In this document: piece after piece, positions 5,438-19,459 of the stretch
How the letters are laid out: each line of letters starts with the position of its first letter
How positions within the stretch are numbered: position 1 is the stretch's first letter
Source: a virus
Taxonomy: Duplodnaviria; Caudoviricetes
Length of the DNA: 64,000 bases
Strand: one strand, 5' to 3'
Virus record (IMG/VR): IMGVR_UViG_3300049141_000098
Location: 64,001-128,000 of that record
Translations under genes and position numbers: made by a program
The notes under the pieces: model-generated
What the model was told of the DNA's origin: nothing
Databases searched by the model: none
Seen by the model: the letters and a program-made list of their open reading frames with translations, nothing else

Positions 5438-6334
5438 ATGACCGCACCCAAGCTCGTTGGGCCCAGGCAGGGCGAACGGGCGACAGAGACGCGCATCTAC
5501 GCCGTCGGCGCCCTCAAGGGCGGAACCGGCAAGACCAGGTTGGCCATGCTCATCGCCCTGATTCTGCGCGTCGTCTTCGGCTACCGCGTCGTCGTCTTCG
5601 ACGCGGACTCAGGCTCGCAGACCTCCTCGAATTGGCCCGTGAAGGCCAAGCTGCGCGAGTATGCCTGGGACATCGAGGTGATCCGCCACCCCTTCGACAC
5701 GCTCGACAAGGAGATCGACAAGATCCGCGAGCGAGGAGACGTCGACTTCATCATCGTGGACGTCGGTGGCGGTAACGTCGCAGCCTTCCAGGCGGCCGTC
5801 AAGCGAGCACACAAACTGCTCGTGCCTCTGTGCCCCGACGAGGGCGACCTGGAGCAGGCCCCCAAGACGCGTGACGCGGCTCTGATGGCGGCCAGCCGGA
5901 ACCCGTTCGGCTGTCAGATGTACTACGTCCTTTCACGCTGCGGCAACGACCGCGACAAGATCGACAGCCGGTCAGTCCTGCTGGACGTGCCCGAAACCGA
6001 CGAGGATGGGCCGTATCCGCTGCTCGACACCGACATCCCGTCCCTGGTGGCGTACAAGCGGGCCTTCGGGCGTATCCCGCAGATGAAGGGGTCCTCTACA
6101 GATCCGGACTGCCCTCGGTGGAAAGACCTCGTGGGCTTTGTCCCGATGATGCTGGAGACGGAGATTCTCACCGTCGAACAGGTTCTCTCCAGCGGCCTGA
6201 TGACCAAGCGGGAAGTGGCCGCACATGCACCCATGCTGCTCGCTGGGGAGGTCATCACGGATGAACAGGCGCTGGAGCTTGGCCTGATGACAGAAGGCGA
6301 GTTGGCCGCCCTCCAGGAAGAAGTGGTCTCCTGA
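5438..6334 (+). CDS. parA: ParA-family partition ATPase
   Basis: Deviant Walker A LKGGTGKT, VVFDADSGSQ, and Walker B IIVDVGG. Confidence 0.9.
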   Translation: MTAPKLVGPRQGERATETRIYAVGALKGGTGKTRLAMLIALILRVVFGYRVVVFDADSGSQTSSNWPVKAKLREYAWDIEVIRHPFDTLDKEIDKIRERGDVDFIIVDVGGGNVAAFQAAVKRAHKLLVPLCPDEGDLEQAPKTRDAALMAASRNPFGCQMYYVLSRCGNDRDKIDSRSVLLDVPETDEDGPYPLLDTDIPSLVAYKRAFGRIPQMKGSSTDPDCPRWKDLVGFVPMMLETEILTVEQVLSSGLMTKREVAAHAPMLLAGEVITDEQALELGLMTEGELAALQEEVVS

Positions 6335-7245
6335 TGAAGAAGGGACAGGTCATCGGGGGCGCCACGGCAAACGGCACTAAGCGGCGCGGCATGCTGCCCC
6401 CCTCCGGTGAGGGGCCGATCGAAGTGACGCGCGAAGTGGTGGACAGCTCCACGGACGTGGAGCCGTCGGCGACCACGCTACCGGCACAGGCCTCGGCGCA
6501 GACTCCCTCGCCGACACTGGCCGACCTCGTACCAGCCACTGTACGAGACATACTGACGGCAGATCTGCCGGAGTCGGGCGAGCCCGCCGAGGTCATCGTC
6601 GCCTGCGAGAAGCGGCTCTACGCGGCGAACAGCTTGCTCGAAGCGATGCAGAAGAAGACCCTCGACACCTACTTCGAGTACGCGGGTCCGGCGGTCCGGC
6701 TAGCTTGGGCGACCGAGTCGTGGCGAGCCTGCAAGGATCCCGATACCGGCAAGGACTGCCGCTCCTGGTCGGCGTGGCTGCGCATCGTGAAGGTGTCCCG
6801 GCAGCATGCATACCGGATGACCAAAGAAGAGCCGATCCGCGAGGCGCTGTCCGGCCTTGACATCGGCAAGCTGGGAGTCCGGCAGATCGACGTCCTCTCG
6901 CCGGTCCTGACCAACTTCGGCCAGAAGGCGGTTCGTGAAGTCTGGGTGACCGCCATGGGCTGGGGAGACACCAGCGCCCCCTCTCTCCTCAAGGTCCGCA
7001 GACAGCAGGGATACGAACCGAACAAGCAGATCTCGGAGGGCGAGGAGGACGCGTCAGGACGGGGTTCGGATCTTCCTGTGCTGCGCTTCCAGGCAAAGCC
7101 GGGCACCTTCGATGCCCAGCGGGTGCGCGAGGTGGCCCGAGCCCAGCCGGACATCGCCCTACTGGTAGCCAAGGAGATCTTCGCCGAACTGGGAGTAGAG
7201 GTAGGCGACGAACCTGTATCGCGCGATACAACTCCAGCGAACTGA
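6334..7245 (+). CDS. ParB-like centromere-binding partner (non-canonical)
   Basis: Translationally coupled to parA; putative HTH (WSAWLRIVKVSRQHAYRM); followed by palindromic repeats. No clear ParB/Srx N-domain. Confidence 0.6.
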   Translation: MKKGQVIGGATANGTKRRGMLPPSGEGPIEVTREVVDSSTDVEPSATTLPAQASAQTPSPTLADLVPATVRDILTADLPESGEPAEVIVACEKRLYAANSLLEAMQKKTLDTYFEYAGPAVRLAWATESWRACKDPDTGKDCRSWSAWLRIVKVSRQHAYRMTKEEPIREALSGLDIGKLGVRQIDVLSPVLTNFGQKAVREVWVTAMGWGDTSAPSLLKVRRQQGYEPNKQISEGEEDASGRGSDLPVLRFQAKPGTFDAQRVREVARAQPDIALLVAKEIFAELGVEVGDEPVSRDTTPAN

Positions 7246-9536: not shown

Positions 9537-9745
9537 CCATCCTCCTTCGCGGCGAGACGGCGGTCCAGAAGGTCGTTGATGCCCTCGTGGTAATCCGATT
9601 CGGCTTCCACGTCCCGAACGAGAGCAGCCTCTCGGGCCAGCGCCACGTTCGCGATGAGCGCCCGATCGACGCTGTCTCCCCGCTCTCCTCGGGGGCCGTT
9701 CACGATCTCATAAACCGACGGGCTGGGATTCCTGTCGAGACTCAC
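9533..9745 (-). CDS. hypothetical protein
   Basis: 70 aa with overlapping start and stop codons. Confidence 0.55.
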   Translation of the reverse strand: MSLDRNPSPSVYEIVNGPRGERGDSVDRALIANVALAREAALVRDVEAESDYHEGINDLLDRRLAAKEDG

Positions 9746-10392
9746 CAGGCCTCACCATCCACCATCTGCTGGAGGTCGCCCAGGAGGTCTGGGTTGACGA
9801 TCTCCAGGATCTGGGCGACCTCGAAGGGCTCGACAGCTTTCCAGAGGATTTCGCGCGCCTTGCCGTAGCGGGCGAGGCGCCCCGCGTTTCCGTCGGGGAG
9901 CTTGGCCGCGCGGTCGACTCGGCTGTTGTGGGCGTTGTCGGCGATCTTCAGCAGCGTCGCCTCGCGATCCTGTGAGATCTTGCAGATGCGGTCCATGTAG
10001 TTCTCGCCGGGCACCTTGGAGACCAGCTCGACGATCCGCACCACCCGGCTCTCGATACCAGCCCCCCGCAGACCTTCGGCGGTCCACTCGGTGTCCTCGA
10101 TCACGTCGTGCAGCAGGCCCGCCATCTGGAGCCGGGTGCTGAACGGCTCCAGACCGGCAGCCACCGCGCGCACGTGCTCGATGTAGGGCACCCCACCCTT
10201 GTCCATTTGCCCCTCGTGCGCCTTCTCGGCGAACTGGTCGACCTCGATGAGCGAGGCCATCTTCTGTGCCACGGTCTCGATGTCGAAGCCGAAGTTGACG
10301 TCGGGGCAAGCGTCATAAATCTCTTCGCGGACCTGCTCCTCGTTGATTCCGTCAGCGGCCTCGACTCGCATCAGAACTTCGTAGACCTTCAC
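9742..10392 (-). CDS. HD-domain protein, RelA/SpoT (small alarmone hydrolase)-like
   Basis: AHEGQMDKGGVPYIEH, AGLLHDVIEDT and LKIADNAHN are RSH-type HD motifs. Confidence 0.85.
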   Translation of the reverse strand: MKVYEVLMRVEAADGINEEQVREEIYDACPDVNFGFDIETVAQKMASLIEVDQFAEKAHEGQMDKGGVPYIEHVRAVAAGLEPFSTRLQMAGLLHDVIEDTEWTAEGLRGAGIESRVVRIVELVSKVPGENYMDRICKISQDREATLLKIADNAHNSRVDRAAKLPDGNAGRLARYGKAREILWKAVEPFEVAQILEIVNPDLLGDLQQMVDGEAW

Positions 10393-16410: not shown

Positions 16411-18018
16411 TTATGTCATCCACGGCCACTTCTCGGCGAACCCGGCCTCCAGCGTCAGGATCTGCTGGAAGACCGAGTCGGTCAGCCCGGCGAACTCGAA
16501 CCGGTTCTTGACCCGCGAGTCGATCGCCGTCTTGGAGTTGCCGCCGATGTTTACGCCGTACACCTTCGTGCCGCTCGGCACCGGCACCGTCTCCGCGCGG
16601 GCGTAAAGGCCCTCGCCGTTGGTCAGCATCACTCCCCGGGGGTCCGTGAAGCACTGCATGTCGCTGATCACGAAGATCCGGTCGTGCCCCGTGAACGTCC
16701 GCCGGATGGCTCCCGTCATCTGGGTTCCGTGCCCGACCTCACCGATGCGGCGGATAAAGCCCTGGGCCGCAGACAGAACACCCTGACCCACCTTGACGTC
16801 GTGCTTGAACACGCCGTCGGCGAAGCCGTACAGCTCGACCTGGCCCGGGTTGCGCTGAGCCAGGATGGAGCCGAAGACCGATGCCGCCATGGCTGGAGTG
16901 ACCTTCGACTTCGCCGAGTAGCCCATGCCATCCATCGACGCCGAGGTGTCGACCAGGACCAGCGTGCGCCCCGGCAGCTCCGGCACCGACTTCAGCGAGA
17001 AGTTGAGGGCCTCCTCCAGTGCACCCTTCCAGCGATCGCTCGGCGCCTCCAGGTAGGCGGACAGGAACCGATACGGGAGCTGCCGGGACTTGGCCACCTC
17101 CACCGGGTCCGCGATACGCGTCGCGAGCTTGTTGGCCGTGGCGTACGAGATGCCCGCCTCGTCCATCTTGCGCAGGTTTCGGATGGCTGCCATGTACGGC
17201 AGGTGCGGAGCCATGGCCTCCCACAGTGCCTCCTCCCCGACCCGCGCCTTCAGCTCGGACGACGCGTTCTCCCACGTAAGACCGAAGTCGTGGAATGCCG
17301 AGCCGTCGCGGAGCGAGGCCAGCTTCTGCTGGTCAGAGAACTCGTCGTACCACCGCTTGCGGGCGGCGATCATCGGCACCGTGCCGACATTGCCGTCCTT
17401 GTGGCCGCGCTCGTCGAGCAGGTACTTCCACAGCGCCTCCTGCTCGGAGTCGCGCGGCTTCGGGTGGACTAGGTTGATGACGTCGGCAAAGCGCATGCCG
17501 CGCGCCCCCGAGTCCCACTTCAGGGCGTTGCGGGCGGTGTACAGGCGGCGCATCGCCATCGCCAGGCCCTTCTTGATCGGCTTTGGCAGGATGCCCTCGA
17601 AGGTGCCGAGCCAGTACGCAGCGAACTCGCCGACCTCGTCGGCCCGCTGGATCACGGCGTCCACCAGTTCGGCGTTGCCGTCGTACTGACCGGCCTCCAG
17701 GCGGCGGTGCACGGTGTGCGCGGCGCCCGTGAGGGAGGCGGTGCGGATGTTGGCTTCGGACCGCAGCCACGGCAGCATGCCGCGCAGCCACGGCCAGTCG
17801 GCGACAGCGACGCCCTCAATGAGCCCGTTGTAGCGGGCGTCACGGGCGTCGCCCTTCTCGTAGAAGGTGTCCTGGCCGACGAAGTTAACGGTGGCGAGGT
17901 TGAACAGTTCGCCCTTCTCCGGGAGCGAGTAGCCGGTGCCGCCCTCGTGGTTCACGGAGGTGCCGGTGACCGGAGCCTTCGCCTTCGGTGGGGTCGTCTT
18001 GGTGTTGAAGCGGGCCAT
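16411..18018 (-). CDS. rsr: Ro60/Rsr TROVE-domain RNA-binding protein with C-terminal vWA
   Basis: NHEGGTGY, DTFYE, LRSEANIRT, DVINLVHPKP, MAAIRNLRKM, SRQLPYRFLSAY and MIDAS VLVDTSASM motifs. Confidence 0.92.
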   Translation of the reverse strand: MARFNTKTTPPKAKAPVTGTSVNHEGGTGYSLPEKGELFNLATVNFVGQDTFYEKGDARDARYNGLIEGVAVADWPWLRGMLPWLRSEANIRTASLTGAAHTVHRRLEAGQYDGNAELVDAVIQRADEVGEFAAYWLGTFEGILPKPIKKGLAMAMRRLYTARNALKWDSGARGMRFADVINLVHPKPRDSEQEALWKYLLDERGHKDGNVGTVPMIAARKRWYDEFSDQQKLASLRDGSAFHDFGLTWENASSELKARVGEEALWEAMAPHLPYMAAIRNLRKMDEAGISYATANKLATRIADPVEVAKSRQLPYRFLSAYLEAPSDRWKGALEEALNFSLKSVPELPGRTLVLVDTSASMDGMGYSAKSKVTPAMAASVFGSILAQRNPGQVELYGFADGVFKHDVKVGQGVLSAAQGFIRRIGEVGHGTQMTGAIRRTFTGHDRIFVISDMQCFTDPRGVMLTNGEGLYARAETVPVPSGTKVYGVNIGGNSKTAIDSRVKNRFEFAGLTDSVFQQILTLEAGFAEKWPWMT

Positions 18019-18098
18019 GTCTCAGTTCTCCTTTCCGGCCGGGATGACCGGTCCGTTCGCCGCCACTTGACGTCAAGGGCGCGGCGGTATTCCTCGAT

Positions 18099-18133
18099 CA
18101 AAAAAAAATGCCCCCTCCGGGTGGAGGGGGCGT
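18099..18133 (-). terminator. intrinsic terminator after the Y-RNA cluster
   Basis: GCCCCCTCC/GGAGGGGGC hairpin followed by a run of T on the minus strand. Confidence 0.75.
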
Positions 18134-18137
18134 CTCA

Positions 18138-18307
18138 TGTACGCAGGCAGACCGGCTGGTTAACCAAACCGCACCAGTGACATTTTGTCTCTTGCTCTGC
18201 CAACTGAGCTACCGGAGCTTTTCAGCAACGGATTGGATTCGAACCAACGACCTAGAGATTACCGGAAGTAACTGATACTTACACACCAGCCGGTTTGTCT
18301 GCGTACA
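18138..18307 (-). ncRNA. yrlA: YrlA-like Y RNA 1 (permuted tRNA-like domain)
   Basis: Long terminal stem; GGTGTG-N7-AGTTACTTC; T-loop GGTTCGAATCC (18235-18245) precedes D-arm TAGCTCAGTTGGCAGAGC (18194-18211); 3' TGGTTAACC; adjacent to rsr. Confidence 0.85.
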
Positions 18308-18323
18308 CCATCACAGTGATTCT

Positions 18324-18463
18324 GGGGCCGTCCGGTTAACCAAGTCGCAACGGGAACGTTAGCGTGCTGCCGTTACACTACCGGGCTTTCGCCGTCGCCG
18401 GATTTGAACCGGACTACTCACTCCAGAGGTGAAGTAACCGTCACTATCACACCGAACGACTCC
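18324..18463 (-). ncRNA. YrlA-like Y RNA 2
   Basis: Stem GTCGTTCGGT/ACCGGACGGC; GGTTACTTC; T-loop GGTTCAAATCC; GAAA-capped acceptor-like stem; D-like TAGTGTAACGGCAGCAC; TGGTTAACC. Confidence 0.8.
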
Positions 18464-18480
18464 AGAGCCACTGTGAAGTT

Positions 18481-18558
18481 GACACCCCCGGTTAACCAGA
18501 GCGGCTACGGCATGTGTCCTTTTGCAGAAGAAGTAACCGTTGCCTTCACACCGGGTGC
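18481..18558 (-). ncRNA. minimal Y RNA 3 (no tRNA-like domain)
   Basis: CACCCGGT/ACCGGGGGTG stem with the same GGTGTG..GGTTACTTC and TGGTTAACC motifs; about 78 nt. Confidence 0.75.
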
Positions 18559-18812: not shown

Positions 18813-18962
18813 TCAGCCCTTGTTGTTGCCGCCGTGCTGCGGAGAAGGCACCACCCCGTTGCCTCCGCAGGGCTTGCAGGGCGCGCTGTTGACATCGCCC
18901 GACGCCGGGTTCACGGTCTGGGTCTCTCCGGTGCCGTTACACGGCTTGTGCTGCTCAGCCAT
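18813..18962 (-). CDS. small DnaJ-type Zn-finger peptide
   Basis: 49 aa with PCNGTG and CKPCGGNG motifs; GGAGAG RBS. Confidence 0.55.
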   Translation of the reverse strand: MAEQHKPCNGTGETQTVNPASGDVNSAPCKPCGGNGVVPSPQHGGNNKG

Positions 18963-19149
18963 TGCTCTCCTCATACTCCATCTCGGCCTTCTGGGCGCGG
19001 TACGCGTCCAGCTCCTCCGAGGAGAGGAAGGTGTTGCCGTCCTCAATCGCGATGAAATCGCTCACCCTTCTCTCCCTTCCGTTTCATGCACACGCTTGCA
19101 AGTTCAGCGTCTGCATGGATTCACAGGTTTCTATTTCACCCTGCCGAAG

Positions 19150-19220
19150 AGCCCGCGACGGGAGTTGAACCCGCACCCCCACCTGCGATAAGTGGTGCGC
19201 TACCGTTACGCTACGCGGGC
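19150..19220 (-). tRNA. atypical tRNA (Arg-UCG-like, non-canonical anticodon loop)
   Basis: Acceptor GCCCGCG/CGCGGGC, D arm, T-loop TTCAACT; anticodon loop TATCGCA has A33 and C37; no CCA. Confidence 0.65.
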
Positions 19221-19385
19221 TCCCTCGCTCGAAAGCGAGGAAGTCGGGATCCGTGAAACGAGGGGGCCCATTCCCTCGTGCGCCTGTTCACGGAACCCTC
19301 TATAGATGGCATCGCCCGCCGCACCGTGTTAACCAGGTGAGCGGGCGAAGAAGCCAGGCCGGAAGCTGTATTGCGTTCGGCCTAG

Positions 19386-19459
19386 TTGGTGGAGGGGGCT
19401 TTGAACCCCCGACCTCGTCCTTATGAGGGACGCGCTCTGTCCGACTGAGCTATCCACCA
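19386..19459 (-). tRNA. tRNA with CAU anticodon (elongator Met or Ile2)
   Basis: Acceptor TGGTGGA/TCCACCA, anticodon arm CGTCC-CTCATAA-GGACG, T arm GGGGG-TTCAAAG-CCCCC, discriminator A, no CCA, no initiator GGG/CCC stem. Confidence 0.88.

Follow-up and report, generated by a model that had tools for sequence, protein, structure and literature searches.

The question raised by positions 16,411 to 18,558 of the DNA studied here is whether a phage gene for a TROVE protein and the three structured RNAs encoded next to it form a single Ro60/Rsr-Y RNA system, and how unusual such an arrangement would be. The window, i.e., the whole stretch of 64,000 nucleotides (nt) that was analysed, covers bases 64001-128000 of an IMG/VR virus record that is 259,646 bp long and has direct terminal repeats (IMGVR_UViG_3300049141_000098; Caudoviricetes), and it contains tail (minor tail, tail fibre), lysis (endolysin), and replication genes. 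An earlier note had described the locus as Ro60/Rsr with a tandem array of three different Y RNAs on a phage-plasmid. We consider it very likely that the locus is a phage-borne Ro60/Rsr-Y RNA system: homology, fold, and covariation speak for a Ro60/Rsr protein accompanied by three different cognate Y RNAs, of which two are permuted tRNA mimics. The phage-plasmid label is not supported, and the implied rarity of the array did not stand. The elements of the locus, in window coordinates and from 5' to 3', are the following.

18596-18567, minus strand: candidate sigma-70/HrdB-type promoter, read from the sequence as TTGCGA (18596-18591), an 18-nt spacer, and TAGTGT (18572-18567)
About 18560-18484, minus strand: Y RNA 3 (RNA3), the 5'-most, a short hairpin of the YrlB/Yrn2-like type without tRNA-like domain, supported by handle motifs, consensus fold, and co-fold
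18461-18326, minus strand: Y RNA 2 (RNA2), the middle one, YrlA-type; a flanking duplex extends it to about 18476-18312
18295-18150, minus strand: Y RNA 1 (RNA1), the 3'-most, YrlA-type; a flanking duplex extends it to about 18309-18137
18131-18101, minus strand: intrinsic terminator at the end of the Y RNA transcription unit; its 9-bp stem includes 8 G-C pairs, is capped by a 4-nt loop, and is followed by a U9 tail
18094-18063, minus strand: remnant of an RNA ligase gene, namely the last 32 nt of the reading frame with the stop codon mutated
18018-16411, minus strand: rsr, encoding a Ro60/Rsr orthologue of 535 amino acids (aa) with a TROVE HEAT-repeat ring and a vWA domain

The gene in which the earlier note had recognised a TROVE gene flanked upstream by RNAs (16411-18018, minus strand, 535 aa) encodes a Ro60/Rsr orthologue. 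The Pfam TROVE profile (PF05731) matches with 56.8 bits (cut-off 23; E 3e-15) over residues 248-322 only, and a phmmer comparison with the Ro60 structures of Thermus phage phiLo (9KOP/9L5Y) extends over residues 11-460 with an E-value of 3e-23. The VWA_2 profile gives a weak match of 21.2 bits, under its cut-off of 27; the DxSxS motif of the metal ion-dependent adhesion site reads D357-T-S359-A-S361 and aligns with the phiLo motif, its residues D357, S359, and S361 being invariant in 14 homologues. With 14 homologues as input, AlphaFold returned a model with a predicted local distance difference test score of 79.9 and a predicted template modelling (TM) score of 0.76, in which the C-terminal domain is Rossmann-like beta-alpha. 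In a Foldseek comparison of this model with the PDB, ranks 1-13 were all taken by Ro60 proteins (phiLo, Xenopus, and human Ro60, and Deinococcus Rsr), with TM values of 0.6-0.77 (9KOP 0.68/0.77, 2NVO 0.66/0.71, 1YVP 0.63) and E-values of 1e-11 to 1e-19, the next match being eight orders of magnitude weaker at 1e-3. A total of 75 phage records contain an Rsr homologue, and the GenBank relatives are labelled 'Ro-like RNA binding protein'.

The phage is of the Streptomyces type; among cultured phages, it is most closely related to Satis, Kradal, Quantum, and EhyElimayoE of Streptomyces cluster BM, with 78% nucleotide identity over the locus, followed at a greater distance by Frankenweenie and JustBecause, whose Rsr proteins are 37% identical. 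The closest relative within IMG/VR, here called L004, has an Rsr that is 86% identical. Satis and JustBecause are plaque-isolated siphoviruses with prolate heads and terminal repeats (PMC6687918). The order promoter-RNA3-RNA2-RNA1-terminator-rsr is kept in Satis, Frankenweenie, JustBecause, and the loci L004-L006.

The three RNAs have in common the Ro-type module reported in the earlier note, which we call the handle, with the 5' side GGUGUG-N8-RGUUACUUC and the 3' side GGUUAACC. At the DNA level, GGTGTG-N7-9-RGTTACTTC occurs at 18265-18287, 18431-18453, and 18530-18552 (minus strand; 0 expected in 100 shuffles), and GGTTAACC at 18158, 18334, and 18490 (vs 0.14 expected); neither the 5' nor the 3' motif has a further copy anywhere in the 64-kb window. 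The composite handle is far above chance, whereas its nine-base core alone, with one mismatch allowed, is not. When the 5' and 3' segments are co-folded, the three RNAs and their orthologues follow one plan, which opens with a terminal stem of 9 bp or more, continues with a GGUGYG/UUAACC helix in which one G is bulged and with a 7-9-bp helix whose sequence varies, and leads to an unpaired UUACUUC. The bulged-G helix has the same layout as the GGUCCGA/UUGACC helix of metazoan Y RNAs. The equivalent of the published 5' GNCGAAN0-1G motif reads GGUGUGAAGG, GGUGUGAUAG, and GGUGUGUAAG in the window and GGUGCGAAGG in Satis RNA3, all of them related to it rather than exact matches.

The bodies attached to this handle differ from one RNA to the next. 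Core sizes are 146 nt for RNA1, 136 nt for RNA2, and about 75 nt for RNA3, and in the whole-transcript fold, flanking stems lengthen the first two to about 165-175 nt, in keeping with the sizes of about 170, 140, and 78 nt first proposed. After the handle, RNA1 continues with a 5-bp anticodon-like stem, a T arm, an acceptor-like stem of 7 positions closed by GAAA, and a D arm. The Rfam YrlA model (RF02553) aligns with it over its entire length, placing the T arm ahead of the D arm, at 32.1 bits. RNA1 and RNA2 lie 132 and 308 nt upstream of the rsr start, on the same (minus) strand, well inside the 4 kb taken as the limit for a YrlA. The Rfam model is too distant to classify the RNAs of the window, and our own covariance model, R1, was built from eight RNA1 orthologues. 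RNA1 scores 154 bits with R1, its minimum free energy has a z-score of -3.1, and 19 of its 35 pairs show compensatory changes in the 8 orthologues (RNAalifold). Even with a model made of RNA1 orthologues only, RNA2 is matched over its full length (52.8 bits, E about 1e-10), and it is therefore a second YrlA-type RNA with a different body, kept in Satis, Frankenweenie, JustBecause, and L004-L006. In the R1 alignments of both RNA1 and RNA2, the T arm likewise precedes the D arm. The T-loops read UUCGAAU in RNA1 and UUCAAAU in RNA2, and the D-loops AGUUGGCA and UAACGGCAG, respectively, the tRNA-like domain of RNA2 being the less canonical of the two. For RNA3, 6 of the 17 pairs of the RNAalifold consensus show compensatory changes, most of them located in the middle stem, and the RNA has a small loop and no tRNA-like part; the short hairpin type of Y RNA (YrlB/Yrn2) has no curated family model for scoring. 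The description given in the earlier note, two permuted tRNA domains with T arm before D arm and different loop sequences, next to a third RNA with nothing of the kind, is thus accurate.

Strong support for these structures comes from homologous loci, a comparison that the earlier note had itself proposed. Across 35 YrlA-type units from 22 loci, in an alignment that was fitted to the R1 model, 93% of the cells are paired, against 33-42% with slid partners, and 32 of the 35 pairs show double, compensatory changes; none of 500 shuffles attained the observed values. The tRNA-like helices are nearly always paired (T arm 98.8%, acceptor-like stem 95.5%, D arm 99.3% of cells). By contrast, helix 6 of R1 (alignment A5, columns 166-169 with 203-206), paired in 71% of cells, is poorly supported and, as proposed by RNAalifold, probably wrong; in the co-fold, the 7-9 nt before UUACUUC pair instead with the 3' strand.

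These covariation data also bear on whether the tRNA-like parts could be no more than decayed or rearranged tRNA genes, left without function by a phage tRNA cluster. Two true tRNA genes, tRNA-Arg(tcg) at 19149-19220 and tRNA-Met at 19385-19459 (both called by ARAGORN and Rfam), do lie 0.9-1.3 kb upstream of the array on the same strand, and the corresponding sites in Frankenweenie, JustBecause, GiJojo, and VanLee were annotated as tRNAs. However, the arms stand in permuted order, a loop closes the acceptor-like stem, and there is no anticodon arm; no tRNA within the array is called by ARAGORN. The two true tRNAs are the sole Rfam matches at gathering thresholds. Moreover, compensatory changes have preserved all helices across phages that share just 35-40% identity in Rsr, which is the opposite of decay, so that this origin is effectively refuted and we find it hardly credible. 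Neither of the two tRNA-like bodies has a convincing one-to-one model among the 10 tRNAs of the phage, the D arm of RNA2 being only loosely like that of the adjoining tRNA-Arg(tcg). As a separate observation, a permuted tRNA-like module without Ro handle lies outside the window, between tRNA-Gln and tRNA-Asn (L024:2796-2880; genome C1, about 133295-133380). It has an anticodon-like stem AUGGG/CUCAU, a T arm, a 7-bp acceptor-like stem closed by UUCG, and a D arm, and matches the tRNA-like part of our own Y RNA model with 31 bits (E about 1e-5); the loop that closes its acceptor stem shows that it is no artefact of tandem tRNAs.

A link between the three RNAs and one protein is suggested by the handle hexamer, which is the same in all paralogues within a genome and different between genomes.

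GGUGUG, three copies: this phage, L004, and L005
GGUGCG, three copies: Satis and L006
GGAGCG, three copies: Frankenweenie and JustBecause
GAUGCG, four to five copies: GiJojo, BRock, Neville, and L011

The 3' strand facing the hexamer is UUAACC in Satis and UUGGCC in Frankenweenie and JustBecause. Across the BM-like phages, R1 scores are 120-160 bits for orthologues and about 50 for paralogues. RNA1, RNA2, and RNA3 are each orthologous across these phages, and the handle substitutions have therefore occurred in parallel in all copies, as binding to one shared, co-evolving protein partner would produce. This genome-specific, uniform handle appears to be new.

Several observations weigh against taking the RNAs as Y RNAs of this Rsr. 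The published GNCGAA/CGAA motif is changed to GUGUGA in the RNAs of the window, and the within-genome uniformity of the handles could alternatively stem from gene conversion between adjoining copies. The Rfam YrlA search proposed in the earlier note recovered RNA1 with the permuted order; its 32.1 bits are, however, short of the gathering score of 69, and RNA2 was not reported. A tRNA-Trp/tRNA-Pro pair elsewhere in the genome (C1 130923-131065, L026, outside the window) reaches a similar 31.7 bits, in a false positive that joins the T arm of one tRNA to the D arm of the next; Chen et al. cautioned against such dimeric-tRNA false positives of YrlA searches (PMC4201824), and the Rfam model thus does not discriminate in this genome. 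Folded singly, RNA2 (z -0.75) and RNA3 (z -1.2) are not stabler than shuffled sequence, and their support is accordingly taken from conservation and covariation. Finally, searches of the phage genome returned no RtcB, CCA-adding/PolyA_pol family, RNase PH/PNPase, or Pfam RNA_ligase protein, and tblastn with the JustBecause ligase was also empty, so that any effector must be a host protein.

Concerning the expression of the array, the hexamers and spacing of the candidate promoter are kept in Satis, Frankenweenie, and L004 (where the -10 element is TAATGT or TAGTCT), even though a generic promoter scanner scores it under threshold. The 462-nt transcript unit folds into three independent modules and the terminator, with a z-score of -5.2, and duplexes of 20-25 bp, which look like processing sites in the predicted fold, flank RNA1 and RNA2. 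The terminator, placed by the earlier note between array and rsr, is found there; it is also kept in Satis and Frankenweenie, and a spacer of 83 nt separates it from the rsr start codon. The public sequencing runs that contain the stretch are soil-metagenome DNA only, with no RNA run listed; two of the DNA runs may be the source of the stretch.

Such a layout, with array and terminator directly upstream of rsr on the same strand, is also what one would expect if the structured region were mainly a cis-acting leader or attenuator of rsr rather than a source of stable trans-acting RNAs. The Satis terminator lies about 25 nt from the rsr start, with no sign of a separate promoter, so that read-through must supply the rsr mRNA. 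Nevertheless, the array is split from rsr by a ligase gene of about 750 bp in L004 and JustBecause, or by a small open reading frame (ORF) in L005, and the units of L010 lie downstream of rsr. Besides, a Y RNA/tRNA-like architecture with covariation in every helix goes well beyond the needs of an attenuator, and the homologues in Mycobacterium smegmatis are stable Rsr-bound RNAs. We therefore hold a main role as leader to be highly unlikely.

The ligase gene just mentioned draws attention to the slot between the Y RNA terminator and rsr, whose content appears to vary. In L004, it holds an RNA ligase ORF of 252 aa, 185 of them identical to gp136 of JustBecause (AYD81305.1), which is annotated 'RNA ligase' and was cited by Iyer et al. 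as a divergent actinophage ATP-grasp ligase. In pairwise alignment, 743 bp of L004 (1682-2424) are missing from this phage in a clean deletion with flanks identical at 87 of 95 positions, which points to a loss, apparently new to the literature, of the ligase gene present in its closest relative. In L005 (2283-2500), the slot is occupied by a small Cys-rich ORF of about 70 aa in place of the ligase, and in Satis and Frankenweenie by nothing.

As for how unusual the array is, the rarity implied in the earlier note does not hold: arrays of 2-5 handle-bearing Y RNAs adjoin rsr in Streptomyces and Gordonia phages, many IMG/VR contigs, and Streptomyces/Kitasatospora chromosomes, and are the norm there. 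The number of handle-bearing units per rsr locus is as follows.

Three: this window, L004, L005, L006, Satis, Frankenweenie, and JustBecause
Four: BRock, Neville, L009, and L011
Five: GiJojo
Two: VanLee and L010
One to three: Streptomyces and Kitasatospora chromosomes (L012-L018)

It is common for a locus to have two different YrlA-type units. When IMG/VR was scanned for the handle pattern, at least 120 stretches were returned, many of which may be chance matches, given that the pattern specifies 14 bases; in 21 of 79 loci, all viral and additional to those above, there were also full-length YrlA-type R1 matches, often two or three per locus, and only these were counted. In GiJojo and BRock, rsr lies inside tRNA clusters. 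Several Y RNAs beside rsr are, in sum, usual in related phages and hosts, and the locus is a good example of a known system.

In the GenBank records of the relatives, these Y RNAs are either unannotated or labelled as tRNAs or small coding sequences (CDSs), as in the following cases.

Frankenweenie, L002:3406-3496: 'tRNA-Pro', 91 nt, overlapping RNA1
JustBecause, L019:335-405: 'tRNA-Cys', overlapping RNA2
GiJojo, L020:1269-1343: 'tRNA-Arg(cct)', overlapping a YrlA-type unit
VanLee, L022:1204-1275: 'tRNA-Arg(tct)', overlapping a YrlA-type unit
Neville, L023:963-1373: three small CDSs, overlapping handle units

These calls beside the Ro-like genes of the five phages are probably mis-annotations, and correcting them would turn several actinophage 'tRNAs' and small CDSs into Y RNA modules.

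Much of what the locus displays has been described before. YrlAs have been counted at 355 in 254 bacteria and 22 phages, with at least two Y RNAs per studied species (PMC4201824), and one Ro protein with interchangeable RNA modules is the standard Y RNA model (Chen 2014, PMC4201824), which the shared handle fits. Phage YrlAs, two or more Y RNAs per species, a phage Ro60 with two Y-like RNAs, and the decoy idea discussed below are all already published, and TROVE proteins in jumbo phages have been noted as RNA-repair platforms (PMC7824862).

The locus resembles the Rsr system of M. smegmatis in its actinobacterial setting, with several Y RNAs directly upstream of rsr on the same strand, in the combination of a permuted tRNA mimic (T arm, acceptor-like stem, D arm) with a shorter hairpin, and in an Rsr-binding motif near the 5' end. 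There, YrlA and YrlB are made as one precursor upstream of rsr, which is processed into stable Rsr-bound RNAs (Chen et al. 2014, RNA 20:1715, PMC4201824), and the published probe sequence implies a related UUACCACUUC element (PMC4201824). The YrlA of M. smegmatis is cut in its acceptor-like stem by RNase P and receives a CCA end. In contrast to M. smegmatis, the phage-borne locus comprises three RNAs, including two tRNA mimics whose bodies differ; their Ro-binding helix is recognisable on both strands (GGUGUG/UUAACC, with one bulged G), and the CGAA core is altered to UGAA, UGAU, or UGUA.

With Thermus phage phiLo it shares a phage-encoded Ro60, for which phiLo Ro60 is the best sequence and structure match, Y-like RNAs just upstream, and the lack of a PNPase of its own, host PNPase being the proposed effector in phiLo. 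The phiLo Ro60 binds two upstream Y-like RNAs and forms a complex with host PNPase in vitro (NAR 2025, PMC12135203). The two differ in that Rsr identity is about 21-22%, the phiLo RNAs are two (Yrl1 and Yrl2) and were not reported as tRNA mimics, and the phiLo host is a thermophile.

The rsr-yrlBA-rtcBA operon of Salmonella Typhimurium (Chen 2013; Hughes 2020, PMC7790460) has the same components, i.e., Rsr, a tRNA-like YrlA, a short YrlB, and a link to an RNA ligase. However, the ligase is RtcB under RtcR/sigma-54 control in Salmonella and an ATP-dependent enzyme in the phage lineage, retained in L004 and JustBecause and lost from this phage, and the Salmonella RNAs lie downstream of rsr. The closest correspondence in handle plan and gene order is found in the orthologous or homologous arrays of the cluster BM phages (Satis, JustBecause, Frankenweenie) and of GiJojo, BRock, Neville, and VanLee, the other actinophages differing in copy number (2-5) and in the handle hexamer.

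For transcription, processing, Rsr binding, PNPase tethering, and biological role, we infer the following mechanism. A transcript of about 460 nt would run from the conserved promoter to the strong terminator and contain three independently folding Y RNAs, which would probably be cut apart at the long flanking duplexes, while rsr, just downstream, would probably be expressed through terminator read-through. Each RNA would bind the Rsr ring via the shared handle, and the distal modules, two different tRNA-elbow mimics and one short hairpin, may by analogy gate the Rsr cavity and tether Rsr to host enzymes, among which the 3'-5' exonuclease PNPase would be the best-precedented first partner. The tRNA-elbow mimics may recruit, or compete for, tRNA-handling proteins, so that the decay or quality control of structured RNA, probably tRNA or rRNA, would be redirected during infection. 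The association of the loci with ligase and tRNA genes hints at the control of damage to tRNA or rRNA at that stage.

The earlier note had suggested a decoy for host tRNA-targeting toxins as an example of function. Under such a scheme, the tRNA-like modules would chiefly be competitive inhibitors or decoys of host tRNA-targeting nucleases or tRNA-modifying toxins, with Rsr stabilising them. Both modules retain an acceptor-like stem and the tRNA elbow, with GG in the D-loop and UUCRAAU as T-loop; arrays often contain two different tRNA-like bodies, the loci are associated with tRNA genes and, in relatives, with RNA ligase, and Hughes et al., who state that YrlA is left uncut by the Salmonella anticodon nuclease, raised the possibility that it inhibits the nuclease competitively (PMC7790460). 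On the other hand, the anticodon stem-loop is absent, with the handle in its place, which would leave anticodon-reading nucleases without their main determinant; the same arrays occur in the chromosomes of Streptomyces and Kitasatospora, in which they have no obvious anti-defence role; and RNA3 has no tRNA-like part. For these reasons, we judge a chiefly decoy function improbable. A broader proposal, which we would put forward only as a rather doubtful one, sees the row of Y RNAs as an adaptor library on one Rsr ring, attached via a handle co-evolving with Rsr, in which each cargo would steer the ring, or else a partner ligase or nuclease, towards a target of its own in a phage-host conflict over tRNA cleavage; the tRNA mimics would be decoys or sensors for host defences, and the slot would hold exchangeable effectors.

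Coming back to the Ro60/Rsr-Y RNA system as such, the locus brings specialists confirmation and extension rather than surprise. It does point to a workable system, since the BM phages Satis and JustBecause plate on Streptomyces lividans and have the same three RNAs, JustBecause also with the adjoining RNA ligase. Moreover, handles that are genome-specific and uniform among paralogues make the specificity between Rsr and handle testable by swapping handles between phages.

The phage-plasmid of the earlier note has as its sole evidence a ParA-like ATPase gene at window 5438-6334 (plus strand; phrog_164 7.6e-20, weak Pfam CbiA and MipZ matches), which may serve extrachromosomal maintenance. The adjoining ORF of 303 aa (the pair spans 5438-7245, plus strand) has no ParB or other family match, no counterpart of the ParA-like gene occurs in the cluster BM phages, and megablast of window 1-24000 against 72,556 plasmids gave no DNA match. 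A virus of 259.6 kb with terminal repeats and plaque-isolated BM siphovirus relatives does not support that label.

Other features of the window deserve mention. The third-position GC content of rsr (0.91) is the highest among window ORFs of more than 200 aa (others 0.75-0.87), two short ORFs (165 and 113 aa) matching or surpassing it, and may reflect a fairly recent gain from a high-GC host. Between the tRNA genes and the array lies an ORF of 49 aa (18813-18962, minus strand) with a CxxCxGxG-like motif, CKPCGGNG, and its own terminator at 18794-18771. At window 9742-10392 (minus strand), an HD-domain protein (Pfam HD_4; PHROG metal-dependent phosphohydrolase) is probably the counterpart of the Satis gene annotated 'ppGpp synthesis/degradation protein, SpoT-like', located beside a DNA helicase.

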